Shown: piece by piece, positions 36,322 through 44,724 of the stretch | Position numbering within the stretch: position 1 is the stretch's first letter | Layout of the letters: every line of letters begins with the position of its first letter | Source: Yuukianura sp. NJ FZ-2021 | Taxonomy: Eukaryota | NCBI GenBank assembly: GCA_046563655.1 | Contig: CM102290.1 | Coordinates: 5,394,001-5,458,000 of the forward strand | DNA: 64,000 nucleotides | Direction of reading: 5' to 3' | Notes under the pieces: generated by a model | Databases searched by the model: none | Told to the model about the DNA's origin: nothing | The model's input: the letters and a program-made list of their open reading frames with translations, nothing else | Position numbers and translations under genes: made by a program

Positions 36322-36335
36322 TCCAGTAGTACAGC

Positions 36336-36655
36336 AGTTTCTGAATTCTGGATGACTTTAGTCCAGTAGTTTCTGGATGCTGGATGACTTTAGTCCAGTA
36401 GTTTCTGGATGCTGGATGACTTTTGGCCAAAGCCTTTCATAAATTATACTTTGAAATTGTTACTATTATCTCCTTGACTTCCTAGCTGAATCTCCCGCCA
36501 CTTTTTTGCCCAAACTCCGATTCGGGAAATAAAGCCGCCAATTTCGTATATCATGAAACGTTTTCAGCCAGTCGTAAAACGTTTTCAGCCAATCATGAAA
36601 CGTTTTCAGCCAGTCGTAAAACGTTTTCAGCCAATCATGAAACGTTTTCAGCCAA
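36336..36655. repeat. Two short minisatellites (~32-bp and 21-bp units) between the convergent TBC1D1 and CNDP2 stops
   Basis: GGATGACTTTAGTCCAGTAGTTTCTGGATGCT repeats; AAACGTTTTCAGCCA x5. Confidence 0.85.
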
Positions 36656-36780
36656 TCAATTAATTTTTCAAGAAATGGAAGGAGTTTATTGGTCCGATTT
36701 TGGAATTTGAGGAAGATTCGTTTCAAGTTCGTTTTTTTTAAGTTGCCGCATTTGAAGAAAATTTTGAATTTGGTGGGATT

Positions 36781-39391
36781 TTAAGCAGCGTCTTTGATTT
36801 TGCCCAATTCAAACAGGTATGACGCCATCAGCTTGGTCTGGAATTTAAAACGTAAAATTCAACCTTTTCTTTTCAAAATTTCGAAAACTTTTTCTTTTGA
36901 ATTTTTGATTTACTCCTTCGATGTAGTTGCGAATGTCCAATTTTTCGTTTTGGGAGTGAGCTCCATCGTCACTGGCCCCCATTGGCAGCAGAAGGACGTT
37001 CTTCTTGGTCGCTTCCTAAAAATCAGTCAAAATTTAAAAAAAACTTATAAAACTTTTTGAATTTGGCGGGAAAAGCAGAAGCGAAAGAGCAATGGGAGGA
37101 AAGTGACATGCGCAAACATGTTTCAAATAAAGAATGTCATGCGCAGGTAGGAACCTGGAGGATGATGACATGGCGGATGAAGCCACCTTCACGAATCAGG
37201 TCAGGTTGGACACCATACACATTCTGCGTGGCCTGTTTGGCCGCTTCGTAGTTTTTGTCATTCGTGACCCCGACCCAGTGCATACATCCATCGTCAGCCA
37301 TGTACACCTAAGCAGCACAAGCGATGTAAGCTCAAAGAAAAAAAAATAAAACCTGGAGAATGAGGGTGATGGGAATCGATCCCCCTTCTCGCGTCAACAG
37401 CGGTTCATGCCCGTAGACCAATCGAGTAGCAGCCGCTGCTGCCCGGTAGTTGCCATGGTTGTGGTCAGCCACCCATGGCTTACCACCATGACCAGAAGTT
37501 ACCTTACAGTTGATCATTTTCAACAAAAATTTTCAAATTTCGAACACACTTTTTCAAAATTTTGGAAAACTTGTATCATTTTTTGATTTTACCAGCAACT
37601 TGTTGGGAGAGTTGCGTTCGGCGAACTTCCGAGTGAGGTGATCCGTCACGGTTCGCTCAACTGTTTCTACGGTTTGGTCTGGAACGAGCCGAACAGAAAA
37701 TTTTCCAATGACTTTCCGTGGAATGACGGTTTTGGCTCCCGGGTCACTAAAACTGTTTTGAAAAACTTTTTTAAAAAATGTTTCAAAATTTTGAAAAAAC
37801 TTTTACAAAAAAATTTTCTCACCAGCCCTGGATTCCATGGATGGACAGAGACGGGTAGCGCCAGCGGCTCATGAGCGTCTTGGTCTAAACGAAACAAAAC
37901 ATAAATTAATTAATTAAACTAAATTAATTAAAGTATAAATTAATTAATTAATGTATAAATTAATTAAGTACAAAGTCCTCTGGGTGACGGAGTTTGTGCA
38001 CTCCTGCGTCGAGTCTGAACTCTTCGTTGTCGAATTTGAGTGCCTTGTAAGTGTCTGCCTCCTCCTGTGTCAGTGGAGCCACTTCGTCGGTCAGTCCGGG
38101 TACCAAAATCTTTCCATCCGCATCCACCAACGAGTTCATCAGAAAAATCAAGTCCGGCATCGCCTCAACCCTGAAATTCAAGATTTCAATTTCAAAACAA
38201 GTTTTTTGCCTTTTGAAAAACTTTTTAGAAAATGGCTTACACTGAGCCCCCGAACACTCCCGAGTGCAGATCCTTTGAGCCGCATTCCACTTCGACGAAA
38301 AAGTAGCAGAGACCGCGGAGGCCGTAGGTCAAGCAAGGATGGTCACGGCCCAACCAGTAGTTGTCAGAGATACAAACAAAGTCAATGTCCTGAAATTTCA
38401 AAAAATTTGTTTTAAAAAAGTTTGTTTCAAAAACGTTTTTCAACGTTTTCCTCCCATTTTGAAATTTTTGTGGGAATTTTGAATTACGGCCAAAAAGGAG
38501 TCGGCAGAGCAGCGGAGAAGAGCTTCCAGTCCTTCCGATCCACTTTCTTCCATGGCCTCCAGGCAAAACTAAAAATGTTAAAACAATGTGAGTTAAAACA
38601 GTTAAAAAGTGAGTTAAAACTTAGTTAAAACTTGGTTAAAAACTTGTTTTACTTTGATGTTGACAGGAATTTCAACTCGACTTTGATGGTAGGCTTCGAT
38701 GGCATGGATCCATCCAAGGACCGGTCCTTTGTCGTCCGTCGCTCCACGGCCAAACATCTTTCCGTCGAATTCAGTCAAGCTGAATGGCTCCGTGTCCCAC
38801 CCATCTTCCTAAATTTTCAAAATTTCGAAAAACACATTTCAAAATTTTGAGTTAAAAGTTCAGTTGAAAAGTTTTTTGAAGTTACAATTTTGGCTGGCTG
38901 GACATCGAGATGGCCGTAGATGAGGACAGTTTTCTTGCTGGGGTCTTGTCCAATGTGTCCAAAGATGACCGGCGGAAGAGGAATGACTTCGCCCTCGCAA
39001 GTAGTCTGCCATTAATCGACAAATAATCAATTAATCGATTAATTCACAAATAGTCTTGGTTTGTATTCTTACTTGTTCTCCGATCTTGCGCAGTTCCACG
39101 GTGACCCCGATGTCAGTCAACTTCTGAGCAGTCCACTTGACCATGCGCACAACTTCGGCTCGAGCTTCGGGAAGAGCCGAAACGGACCGAATCGAAACTG
39201 CTTCTCGGAGGGTCTCGATGTAGCGCGGCTTGTTGGCCTGGATGTGCCTACAAACACAAATTAATATATTAAAATTAATTAATATAACAATAAAAGCAAT
39301 TTTCAAGGTCAAAGGTCACTCACATGAAAACTTTCTTCATCTCCGGATCGAGTTCCTTGGGCATGACAGGAGCATCAGCTGGACTGGCCAT
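36781..39391 (-). CDS. CNDP2: Cytosolic non-specific dipeptidase (peptidase M20A)
   Basis: [63 protein letters not shown]. Confidence 0.95.
37155..37307 (-). CDS. Duplicated (putative mutually exclusive) CNDP2 exon B
   Basis: tgcttag|GTG...CTCCAG|gttcct; 51 open codons, phase 0/0; homologous to exon A (37502-37353). Confidence 0.8.
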
Positions 39392-40126
39392 GTTGGATGA
39401 TCAAAGTGAAACTTTGGCACTGGAAATTTTGAAAACAAATTTTGAAAAGAATTGAAATTTTGAGTAATTGACGAAATTTGGAGAGGAGAGGAAATGCGGA
39501 TAATTGATGTTTCCTGTGTGGAGGTCAGAATGCAACTGAGAGGCGTAACCTTGAATTTTTCTTGAGCTAAACTGACTCACTCGAGTGATAAACAACAGAT
39601 GACTAAAACCGCCTCCCGCGTCGCCATAGCAACAAAATCTCCACAAATTTCAAAATTTCGAAAGAGTTTATGCGAAAAAGGGAAAATTGGAGCTTACCTT
39701 GGAGGGAGTAACTATGTGTGTTGAATGAAATCCTGGCGAGGGCGTGGCGTGACCGTGCATTTAAGAGTCATTGACACTCGAATGTGCTGGAATCACAAAA
39801 CAAACTGATAATCATTTTTGCTAATCTCATTCCAATTGTGCTTTGTGTTTCGGCCAAAAGATAATTTTTTGCCAATACGTCGCTGAAATAACTAAAAGAT
39901 AAATTTCTAAAGATAAATTGAATGAAATTGAAATTGAAGTGCTTTGTTGCACTTTTATTACAAACGACTCTCCTTGCAAAACGTAAAAAGTGCAATTAAA
40001 TTCTCCAGAAAGCGAACTTAAGGATTAACGACCGACAAGAAATCATCAAAAAAGTGTGTAACATGAGTTAATTCTTTTGAATTAAGAATCACTTTGTAAT
40101 CGTTTGTCCTGCCCTACTGCCAAGAC

Positions 40127-42452
40127 ATGGACTACATTCCAAATGAGGTAGCATCAACTTACTTAATTTACTTAAGTTTTTTCTAATTTAACTATTCCTA
40201 AAACAAATTATTCATATTTGATGTGATCCTCACTTGGAAAATTTAATGACTAAATTTCGAAATTCCCGCCCGAAAAACCAAACACGAACCAGAAACCTAA
40301 CCGAAAGTCTGCGCATGCGAAGTCACTTAATGAGCAATTTGAGAAGTAAAGTTAGTAGTTTTCAAAGTCAGTCGTTTGAGGGCTCGATGTGATCAAAAAC
40401 TTGTTTTTCAGACACTACTTCAAATCATTGGTTGTCTGGAGAAGGAAGAGATTCCAAAGATGCGTCTCGTCAGTAACCGCTTCAATGTCCTAGCAACGGA
40501 ATGTGTACAAAAATCGTGTCTAGTCAAGTTAACAACTGACTCTGACATTGCCAAATTTGTGACAATGTTTGAAAAGAAGGCGGTTGTTCCGTTTCAAAAG
40601 TTTGTGTTTACTGAAACTGTTCTGGCGTATGGCCAGCCCTTAGAGCAATTCTGTCTCCAGTTTGGGAAACTTGTTAAACGCTGGGACATTTTTCGTAGCA
40701 GTCGCCAGGAAGTGCTAGGAGAGAATTCCGTTTCCAAAAACATACTAATCCTACTGGAAAACTGCGTCAACGTGGAGGAAATCCGCTACTTAATTGGTAT
40801 TGATGTGAAAGAAATTGGCAAGTTTAATAACATTCCGACACTCGGAAATTTGAAAACCATCGTAATCGGGTGGTTGGATGTCGAGAACAAAGAATTTCTT
40901 CTCCTTCTGCATCAAATTTATCAAAAAGCTCCAAATCTGCGGACCGTTGAAATCAGGAATCTGATAGACCACAGTTGGTCCGTTGCGTATCTCGCAAACA
41001 CTTTAAATCAACTGGCCAACATGAACGCAACAGTCCAACTACAGGAGTTGGACAGCTCACTTGTCCTTCCGACCACGAATGTTGGTGACCTCGAAAAGTT
41101 GTTTCCAATTTCAACACAATTCGGAATAGTTGATTTGAGATTGGAGTTAACTGTACGTCATCGCGATCCTGAACAATTACCTCAACAACTAGAAATTTTG
41201 TCAAAATGGAATCAAAAGCTAAGTTCTGTCCGCACACTTTCTATGTCGTATCATGACATGTACGATCCGAATAATCGTGAGCGGCCTAATGTTCCAATTC
41301 CTCTGCCGCTCCATGCCGTACCGAATCTTGAATGCTTGAAGTTGAAAGTAATAAATGTAGAAGTATACATTCCTGTTGATGTAGATCAGCAGACGGAATT
41401 TCCAGCTCTGAAATCGCTCATCTGCAACCTACTTCAGGCAAAAGCCAATAACTTCATTTTTTCTGGATGTGTTTTTCCAAACGTCAGATTTGCAGAAATA
41501 TGTTTAAAAACGGAAGAAGAGTGTGAACAGTGGCCATGCGTATTACCAAATGTTGAGGAATTGTTCGTCATTACTAAAACGTTGAAGGGGATTTTCCGAT
41601 TTCCAAAGTTGAGGAAACTGGACATCTCCTTTTATACTGGATTGAATCGTCCTGATTATCGTCAGGTTTGTAGGCAACACTGGACACACCTTACAGGAGG
41701 AGCTGCATATGTTCCGAAGGTACAGAATTTTCAGTTTTCCTGTAAACACTCCGAAGAAGACGTCGGATTCGATTGAGTCATTTCGGAATTTGCCGCGTGA
41801 GTGTCTAGCTTTTATAACTGCTTGTTATTATAAATTTTGAATTCAATTCCGAAGAATTTATCTAATAAAATTTGGTTCATTTTTAGTACTAACGCATTTA
41901 AGGTTTACCGACGAAACCGCTGAGTGCTGGAAGGGAATTGTTTACGCAAGTAGAACTGGACAACTAGGACGCCTTCGAAAACTTACCTTCAATTTTCGGG
42001 ATTTTGACGAGGTTAGTTCTCAGTTGATAGCAATGTACCTAAACAACAAAATAGTTTTTTTCTTTAACAGATTTGGCAATGACCTAACTTTTTAAATTTT
42101 ATTAAAAAATTAGCAAAACTAGGTTCACCGTTCTCTTCTATGGCAAGGAGTTGTATGTAATCGGAGGAAAAAAAGTCTTGGCAGCGAAATTTTTAGATAA
42201 TCGTACTGATTGCCTAATCTGTTAAAGAAAAACTAATTTCGTTGTTATAGGAACCTTGGCTAATACTGGTGTTGCAAGAAAAGTCAAATGTTAGATACAA
42301 AAATTATGATGAATTTGGAGTAAAAATTATTGAATTAGAACATGTACAATGTAAATGTTCTATTTCAGGAGGAGTCGTATGTCGCAGAATTGCTGAAGTA
42401 CCACGACGTTTTAGTCGTTGGTGATGAAAATGATGATTTATCGGATTCTTAA
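40127..42452 (+). CDS. F-box protein with degenerate LRR-like repeats; 3' structure uncertain
   Basis: MDYIPNE|TLLQIIGCL...MRLVSNRFN F-box pattern, LxxLxxL repeats (PNLRTVEI, PNLECLKL, PALKSL, PKLRKLDI); further exons at 41887-42011 and 42369-42452. Confidence 0.65.
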
Positions 42453-42720: not shown

Positions 42721-44724
42721 TTAAATTTCCTGTTGTTGTGTGGTGTGGATCTTAAGGGTCCATGCCCACTTGGAAGTGCTCCTGAGTGGATCAGGGAAAG
42801 TGACTCTGATGCCTGGACTTGCATCTTCCCAGGCCAAAGTCCCCTCCCCCTCCGCCCCCAGCAGGGTCACTGACCCCACTTGCACTCCATCCACCACTGC
42901 TAGCTCCAAAACAGACTCAGATGGCCAATCCAATGCTATGGCATACACTAGGCTCTCAGCAGGCTTCGAAGTGAACCTAGCATTTCAATCAATGGAAATT
43001 AATTAATTGTTAGTTAATCGTTAATTAACTTAATTGTGACCCACCATACTCCAGAGGTCAAAGTGTCATTTTGGAATATCCATGGTACAGTGTCGTATAT
43101 GGCTTCTCCGTTGATGTCCAGCCACTCACCGAGTTGCAGCAGTCGCTCTTCCTGGATGGGCACGATTATCCCCTCCTTCGTCGGACCGACGTTGATCAAG
43201 GCGTTTCCTCAAAAAACATTCAAATTCTTACTTTCAAAACTTCATGTTCAAGTTTTCAAAATTTTGAAAAAAATTTACCTCCACAAGCGACCGTTTCTGT
43301 GATGGTTTTGATCATTTCGTCTGGTGTGAGGTAGTCTTCGATTTGAGCGTTTCTGCGATAGCCCCATGAAGTCTTGTCCAACGTAAAGCAATTCTCCCAT
43401 TTATGGGGCTGTAGCGTACCTAGCATTTACAAAACCAAAATTTTGAAAAAAAGTCAAAAATTTTTAAAAACAAAAAGTGAAAATTTTTGAAAACAAAACT
43501 CATTGTTCAACTCCACAACTGGCGGGATGTACTCACCAGGATTGTAGCGATCGGAACAAGTGCTGAAATAAAAAATGGAAATCAGTGATTTGATTCGTTG
43601 AAAATGGGAGTATGTGATTGGCCGAAAAATGGAAGTCAGTGATTGGTGGAAAATGGACGTCAGTGATTGGCTGAAGGTTAGGTTATGTTGACCTAATGTC
43701 GTAATTAACTTAGTTTAGTAGTTACTAGTATCCTCCATGAGTGCAGAGTGTATCGTGACCCCATCGGTCATTGGTGACCACTGTGTCCTTGACTGGACTG
43801 TCGTTGTACAGCCATGCCAAGAATTCCTTAGACTGCCAATAGGTGTCAGGAGCCTCCCATTCTCCATCGGACCAAAAGATCTCCGGTTGATAAGTGTTGA
43901 CAAGTTCGTACATTTCCGGAAGCGTTTTGAACTGCACGAACTCATCCGAAGTCAAGTTGTTGTCTCTGTTGTGCATCCACAGCGGATTGAACCACTCGTA
44001 CAAACTGTGGTACAGACCGAACTTCAGGTCGGATTCTGCTTTTACGGCATTCGCCAGCTCACCTACCATATAGAATTCATACTTCTAAAAAAAAAGTTTT
44101 TCAAAATTTTGAGAAATTTGAAATTTGAGTTTTTTAAAAACTCACCTAGCAAGTCTCGATGAGCTCCGACGTCCACGGCGTTCCAACTGTATGAAAATTT
44201 CGATGGCCAGAGTGTGTAGCCCTCGTGATGCTTGCTCGTCAGCACGACGTATCTGGAACGTTTTAAAATTTAAAATTTGAACTTCCCCCGCCGCCGAAAT
44301 TCAAATTTTCTCACCTTGCCCCAGACTTTTTGAAAAGTTGAGTCCACTGACTTGCATTGTAGAACTCTGCCGTGAACTGCTCTCCAAAATCCTGATAAGT
44401 GAATCCTGGTCGGTAGTTTTTGGTCATGAATTCAATGATGGCTGGATTCTGTGATGTTTTCCACCCATGCCAGAACCACTCTGAGCTGAATCCGGGTACG
44501 CTAAATACTCCCCAGTGAATGAAGATCCCGATTTTGCTTTGGTCGTACCACGAAGGCAATGGTCGGGCATCTAAACTCTCCCAGGTTGGGTCATACGCTA
44601 ACGGTTTCGTCACGGCCACGGTCTCGCTACGCGTCTGCGTTTTGCTCAGAGTTGCGAAACTGCCGGTCCAGAGCAAAATGGCGCCAAGGAGCACGGAAAC
44701 GAAAAAATGTCGTTTGCTGTCCAT
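42721..44724 (-). CDS. FUCA: Alpha-L-fucosidase (GH29) with signal peptide
   Basis: [58 protein letters not shown] nucleophile motif, VVTNDRWG. Confidence 0.96.

Follow-up and report, generated by a model that had tools for sequence, protein, structure and literature searches.

Tandemly duplicated exons of which an mRNA carries one copy or the other are a well-described kind of alternative splicing: exons 2 and 3 of alpha-tropomyosin are mutually exclusive, the intron between them being too short to splice, and exons 9 and 10 of PKM, also mutually exclusive, give enzyme isoforms. Here we describe a candidate pair of this kind, exons A and B, in a CNDP2-like dipeptidase gene of Yuukianura sp. 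NJ FZ-2021 (assembly GCA_046563655.1, contig CM102290.1, positions 5,394,001 to 5,458,000; this whole 64,000-nucleotide (nt) stretch is the window referred to below, and positions are counted within it). We consider A and B to be tandem-duplicated alternative exons, and put at roughly 0.7 the probability that the mRNA carries one or the other. The closest described layout is that of five Caenorhabditis elegans clusters of mutually exclusive exons (egl-15 5B/5A, let-2 9/10, bet-2, gly-5, and gly-6), in which exon lengths are multiples of three (3n) and the intervening introns are too short to be excised (PMC4165533). As in those clusters, the exons described here are adjacent and homologous and have 3n lengths, with nonsense-mediated decay (NMD) unable to police their double inclusion, and a very short spacer would place the donor of the first exon too near the branch point. 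The C. elegans spacers named in that account measure 14 and 30 nt (PMC4165533), compared with 45 nt in the window and 37 nt in an orthologous locus described below; the spacers here lie nearer to the lower limit of real introns, and a steric block is therefore less certain than in C. elegans. The C. elegans clusters were also verified by reverse transcription PCR (PMC4165533), whereas the pair described here is a candidate read from genomic sequence.

Enzyme isoforms produced from tandem-duplicated mutually exclusive exons have also been described for ATE1 (exons 7a/7b; PMC7797038) and OGDH (exons 4a/4b; PMC7969005). The present pair would resemble these and PKM in that a homologous segment of the enzyme would be exchanged around an unchanged catalytic core, and in that the duplication is ancient and both copies are under selection. 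In ATE1, OGDH, and PKM, all of them vertebrate genes, the introns are long and the choice is governed by competing RNA structures, distant branch points, or splicing factors; unlike in those genes, the segment that would be swapped here lines the substrate pocket of an M20 metallopeptidase. Human and mouse CNDP2 (4RUH, 2ZOF) share their metal ligands and pocket residues with the gene in the window; no second version of the segment turned up for mammalian CNDP2 in our comparisons, and exon B has Phe in place of Ser417. Research on CNDP2 has dealt with its roles as Cys-Gly dipeptidase in glutathione turnover and as producer of N-lactoyl-phenylalanine. An exon pair of this kind in a CNDP2-type dipeptidase was not found in the full-text literature (the scope of which excludes subscription journals, supplements, and genome annotations); a Daphnia paper that contains both "mutually exclusive exons" and "dipeptidase" refers to an alpha-aspartyl dipeptidase with exon skipping.

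The gene and the exons and introns around the pair are as follows.

36781-39391, minus strand: CNDP2-like M20 dipeptidase gene; 13 exons counting both A and B, ATG at 39391, stop at 36781.
37593-37746, minus strand: exon 9, constitutive and preceding the pair; its phase 0 end has the donor GTAAAA, and it includes T330 and R343 (human numbering).
37503-37592, minus strand: intron 9, 90 nt; precedes exon A and has a purine-rich, weak acceptor.
37353-37502, minus strand: exon A, the canonical version; 50 codons, 150 nt, donor GTTTTA.
37308-37352, minus strand: A-B spacer, 45 nt, with a T-run and one branch-like CTTAC.
37155-37307, minus strand: exon B, the alternative version; 51 codons, 153 nt, donor GTTCCT.
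37016-37154, minus strand: intron after B, 139 nt, the longest in the gene.
36914-37015, minus strand: constitutive exon 11; starts in phase 0 and carries the metal ligand His445.

The gene model was built from stop-to-stop open reading frame (ORF) pieces, which were anchored at splice sites and then checked as a joined frame; the border between exons 6 and 7 was set by hand to 38241/38170, and the frames were verified after joining. Exon 4 alone matches PF01546 (Peptidase_M20) with 45 bits (Pfam curated cut-off 24.6; E 1.6e-11), and for each of the seven exons searched against PDB the top match is human or mouse CNDP2 (4RUH or 2ZOF), above DUG1 and CNDP1. In M20A enzymes the two-metal centre is liganded by His99, Asp132, Glu167, Asp195, and His445, with Glu166 as the catalytic residue (PMC6271292). 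An earlier note on this DNA had proposed that the metal ligands lie in constitutive exons; H99 (exon 3), D132 (exon 4), D195 (exon 6), and H445 (exon 11), aligned to 4RUH, do map there, as do the pocket residues H228 (exon 6), T330, and R343 (both exon 9). E166/E167 fall in exon 5 (FCLEAMEES), where they were placed by exon length from residue 160, without separate alignment. Domain, ligands, and closest structures agree in assigning the predicted product to the CNDP2-type dipeptidases of M20A.

Exons A and B are homologous, with 23 identities over 48 residues (48%) in a BLASTP comparison; at E 5e-13 this likeness is not due to chance. A tblastn search of the whole window with both exons recovered only these two copies (next match E 0.14), which together with their homology indicates a real, single tandem duplication of one exon. 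Both are preceded by AG and followed by GT, begin and end in phase 0, and have open frames; they are thus adjacent homologous exons of equal phase and nearly equal length, each with its own splice sites, and the reading frame continues uninterrupted with either alone. The isoform with A only would have 490 amino acids (aa) and that with B only 491 aa, each with a single terminal stop in the frame check; inclusion of both would give 541 aa and of neither 440 aa, and the common stop is reached in all four inclusion patterns. The earlier note had proposed this same pair, and its reading of the anatomy stands up: the translations that it gave for exon A (37502-37353, 50 residues, VTSGHGG...ITLILQ) and exon B (37307-37155, 51 residues, VYMADDG...VIILQ) are reproduced letter for letter, the AG/GT borders, phase 0/0, and freedom from stops are borne out by the translation and the gene model, and the model likewise ends the upstream exon at 37593 and begins the downstream exon at 37015. 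The gap between the exons, which it had described as shorter than the other introns, spans 37352-37308 and at 45 nt is the shortest of 12.

Exon B is also present outside the window. When 1.84 billion representative proteins were searched with exon B by phmmer, 18 matched at E <= 1e-3, of which 12 were retrieved; P0004, P0005, P0007, P0012, P0014, and P0016 (516-3667 aa, mostly with several matched stretches) were left out as presumed matches to repeats or low-complexity sequence. Ten of those retrieved are ordinary A-type CNDP2 pieces, and the other two are short B-type ORF fragments, P0003 (61% identity to exon B of the window; from a Logan contig of 4204 nt) and P0008 (53%; from a JGI contig of 5221 nt), which share xDDG..., REGGF, and ...ILQ followed by VP. 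Scanning metagenome contigs with the B alignment yielded 16 loci, 15 with a single A-type segment and one with exon B; the latter, L001, is the locus of P0008. In L001, exon A (194-343, 50 codons) and exon B (381-533, 51 codons) are separated by a spacer of 37 nt; an intron of 105 nt then leads to exon 11 and one of 96 nt to exon 12. Downstream, on the opposite strand, L001 encodes a homologue of the window's convergent neighbour gene (39% identity, E 8e-17). Given the same architecture and the same neighbour gene, we identify L001 as the orthologous locus of a different species.

The scans of genome contigs and of viral contigs contained no B-type loci. For a full-length B-type protein, a single-sequence search for longer proteins produced five candidates, none of which scored, and a profile search for longer proteins passed 2 of 445 candidates, both A-type; a near-relative search returned only the fragments P0003 and P0008, from three candidates. 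The protein databases are clustered at 90% or 50% identity, and a B isoform that differs in 50 residues could be hidden in them; because clustered databases can merge isoforms, the failed search for a full-length B protein counts neither way. Exon B would be easily missed in annotation, as the protein databases searched hold it only as prokaryote-style ORF fragments.

The window and L001 belong to widely diverged species. Synonymous differences are saturated in every exon (proportion of synonymous sites that differ, pS, 0.71-0.95), and two ordinary introns align at the level of shuffled sequence (identity 0.51, with shuffle mean 0.45 and maximum 0.52; and identity 0.54, with shuffle mean 0.49 and maximum 0.56). 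Exon B nonetheless has 51 codons in both loci without indel or stop, with its splice sites in the same positions and 55% protein identity. Its non-synonymous proportion (pN) is 0.33 against a pS of 0.71, corresponding to non-synonymous and synonymous rates (dN and dS) of 0.44 and about 2.2 and a ratio of about 0.2, a figure that saturation of dS makes rough. By codon position, identity is 0.69/0.65/0.41 (positions 1 and 2 against 3, Fisher p 0.003). For comparison, exon A has 76% identity, dN 0.22, and pN/pS 0.19/0.83, and exon 11, at 94% identity, is more constrained than exon A. The intact 51 codons, the retained splice sites, and the codon-position pattern, all in spite of saturation, are therefore what a translated exon would show, as opposed to a dead copy, and both copies appear to have been kept under purifying selection in the orthologous locus. 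The earlier note had held that stops, frameshifts, or a dN/dS near 1 in orthologous loci would mark B as a dead duplicate; applied to the one orthologous locus, this test argued against that possibility.

The age of the duplication was addressed with an IQ-TREE tree of 24 exon-equivalent segments (3 B-type and 21 A-type, 51 columns). Left out of the tree and of the column counts given below were L006 (the same segment as L004), L011 (near-identical to L008), L012-L016 (in which an intron splits the segment), and P0010 (the frame of which leaves the family after REGG). The three B exons cluster together with support of 97/97, and the A exons of the window and L001 cluster together with support of 96/96. 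Forcing A and B of the window into one clade is rejected (p-AU 0.002), whereas holding all five segments of the lineage together is not (p-AU 0.33). Since B exons of different species group with one another, the duplication is older than the split of these species, as judged from the exon sequences.

Exon A aligns to residues 378-425 of human CNDP2 (4RUH), and in human numbering exons A and B each encode residues 376-425. The numbering in the earlier note proved accurate, as the His of GHGG aligns with residue 380 of 4RUH and the Ser of GGSIP with 417; exon A carries His380, E414, G415, G416, S417, I418, and P419. All 21 A-type sequences share the same residue at nine columns (W385, A396, A400, P409, R413, E414, G415, S417, and I418), and the three B exons all keep seven of them (W385, A396, A400, P409, R413, E414, and G415). 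At position 417, Ser in 21/21 A-type sequences is replaced by Phe in 3/3 B-type sequences; position 418 is Ile in 21/21 A-type sequences and I, S, or V in the B-type; Pro419 is present in 20/21 A-type and 0/3 B-type sequences. The contrast between GGSIP and GGFIR to which the note had pointed is thus well founded, Ser417 against Phe being a clean discriminator of the two types. Its companion claim, a switch from GHGG to ADDG, holds on the B side, where positions 379-380 are Asp-Asp in 3/3 sequences, and is weaker on the A side, which is less uniform: His380 is found in only 15/21 A-type sequences. Exon A of L001 has Ser at this position (ESGGKPW versus GHGGKPW), so that in this lineage the A form can do without His380.

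In docking and molecular dynamics (MD) of human CNDP2, His380 forms one ligand sub-pocket and Tyr197 with Gly416 the other; the hydrogen bond to Ser417 is kept for the whole simulation, and contacts are also made with Ile418 and Pro419 (PMC12655758). The changes that define exon B thus fall in the pocket wall, and the structural scaffold of the segment is retained.

We infer the following mode of splicing from these features. Exon 9 would be joined to A, with B skipped, and A to exon 11; alternatively, exon 9 would be joined directly to B and A skipped; and the 45-nt spacer would be too short to splice, so that double inclusion of A and B is blocked. The spacer is 45 nt, the intron after B 139 nt, and the other ten introns 67-98 nt; in L001 the spacer, at 37 nt, is again the shortest, of three introns (the others being 105 and 96 nt). 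Because all four inclusion patterns stay in frame, NMD cannot enforce exclusivity, and with NMD ruled out as a safeguard a steric block would be the simplest mechanism. In mammals and C. elegans a short distance from donor to branch point is held to block spliceosome assembly (PMC4165533); the CTTAC branch-like motif in the window lies 26 nt from the A donor and 19 nt from the B acceptor, and the sole branch-like motif in L001 lies at most 21 nt from the A donor. The donors of A and B begin with GTT in both species (4/4), whereas those of constitutive exons have GT followed by a purine (10/10 in the window and 1/1 in L001). The acceptor of exon A has a pyrimidine share of 0.41, the lowest of the 12 acceptors in the gene. 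These GTT donors and the poor pyrimidine tract of exon A fit regulated exons. The pair is therefore offered as a compact candidate for mutually exclusive splicing by a sterically blocked short spacer, with a layout kept in two distant species.

GTTCCT forms the first six intron bases after B both in the window (37149-37154) and in L001 (534-539), and this unusual donor seems to be conserved; the remainder of the intron is at shuffle-level identity, and the read-through VPP of P0003 fits the same intron start. The U12 donor consensus is GTATCCTT; a U12-type intron was considered for the GTTCCT donor and rejected by eye, given an indel relative to that consensus.

Several points weigh against mutually exclusive use of two functional exons. 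C. elegans has introns down to about 40 nt (PMC4165533), so a 45-nt spacer might be spliceable here, although the 37 nt of L001 is below that length. The variability of residue 380 among A-type sequences weakens part of the pocket-switch story. The non-synonymous rate is about twice as high in B as in A (dN 0.44 versus 0.22), which implies weaker constraint on B, and the comparison from which selection was read consists of one orthologous DNA locus and one protein fragment.

The spacer also bears on the alternative that survives best, although we consider it unlikely: B would be a conserved coding exon without strict exclusion, present together with A (541 aa), as a rare cassette, or with its donor unused so that translation reads through into a short tail. 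The frame is kept in every inclusion pattern, some animals have minimum introns of about 40 nt (PMC4165533), and translation past the B donor meets a stop after 5 codons in the window, 11 in L001, and 3 in P0003, which would give a protein lacking His445. A stop soon after a donor is, however, normal for any intron, and double inclusion would put two copies of a segment that holds nine family-invariant residues into one catalytic domain. Moreover, what B substitutes is precisely the pocket loop of A, with no module added, and in neither locus is any intron shorter than the spacer, which in L001 falls to 37 nt with the branch-like motif no more than 21 nt from the donor.

A different alternative is that the B region is kept mainly as an RNA element, such as a decoy exon or a structure regulating the splicing of A, rather than for the protein that it could encode. 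The spacer is 0.65 identical between the window and L001, above the maximum of 200 shuffles (0.64), and is the sole intron above shuffle level; pairings of A-runs with T-runs join the spacer to the region just upstream of A in both species (pairs I6 and I2), and a 13-nt pairing joins the two ends of exon B in the window (pair I5). A search for competing RNA structures in the window and L001 gave only these A-run/T-run pairings and the one within exon B, an unconvincing set, as the former are of low complexity and the latter was not found in L001. Conservation of B is lowest at third codon positions and tracks the family-invariant residues, the signature of selection on protein, and we regard a primarily RNA-level role as improbable.

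Least probable, if only slightly less so, is that B is a decaying or dead pseudo-exon never included in functional mRNA and open by luck: although B is missing from every full-length protein retrieved, changes faster than A, and has a donor (GTTCCT) that poorly resembles the constitutive ones, it has kept its 51 codons, 55% identity, codon pattern (p 0.003), splice sites, and donor hexamer despite saturation, a B-type open frame occurs in a third species (P0003, 61% identity), 7/9 family-invariant residues are kept in 3/3 B exons, and exon A, which is certainly used, has an equally odd GTT donor.

If A and B are alternative exons, as we favour, both products would keep the complete two-metal centre and the residues contributed by the partner subunit, and would differ in residues 376-425, which make up one wall of the substrate pocket. 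The A form would present a loop with the family-invariant Ser417-Ile418 and the near-invariant Pro419, usually together with His380, and the B form Phe417, variable residues at 418-419, and Asp379-Asp380. We would expect the B form to fold as an enzyme whose substrate preference is altered, or whose activity is altered or lost. More tentatively, and with considerable doubt, the B isoform may be a functionally different protein, either with its pocket re-aimed at other substrates (for example, basic dipeptides or N-acyl amino acids) or as a weak subunit that heterodimerises with A. Because His228 and Thr330 of the partner subunit complete the active site of CNDP2 in trans, an A/B heterodimer could tune activity. 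If so, the choice of exon would serve in this lineage to switch the metabolism of dipeptides, Cys-Gly, or N-lactoyl amino acids. An isoform pair apparently kept by selection, with one metal centre and differences in the Ser417 loop and at residue 380, would in effect be a ready-made experiment on substrate choice in M20A.

In the window as a whole (GC content about 0.41), no Rfam family was matched. Just upstream of the dipeptidase gene, an uninterrupted frame of 477 codons (40343-41776, plus strand) has no Pfam family above cut-off, its best match being at E 0.025. Between the dipeptidase gene and its convergent neighbour, the 3' ends of which are a short distance apart, lie tandem arrays at 36327-36423 and 36550-36658, one with three copies of a 32-nt unit and the other with units of 21/42 nt and 100% matches at a period of 42. 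Intron 7 of the dipeptidase gene (37904-37967) consists mostly of an AATT/AATTAATTAAAGTATAAATT repeat. A palindromic motif around CAAAATTTTGAAA is present in 34 copies in the window at no more than one mismatch, compared with 1.25 expected (for example, at 36871-36886, 37552-37567, 37781-37796, 38815-38849, 39648-39663, 43254-43269, and 44099-44114). Several copies lie inside introns of the dipeptidase gene, often in short local repeats, and the motif could represent a small repeat family or an intronic signal.

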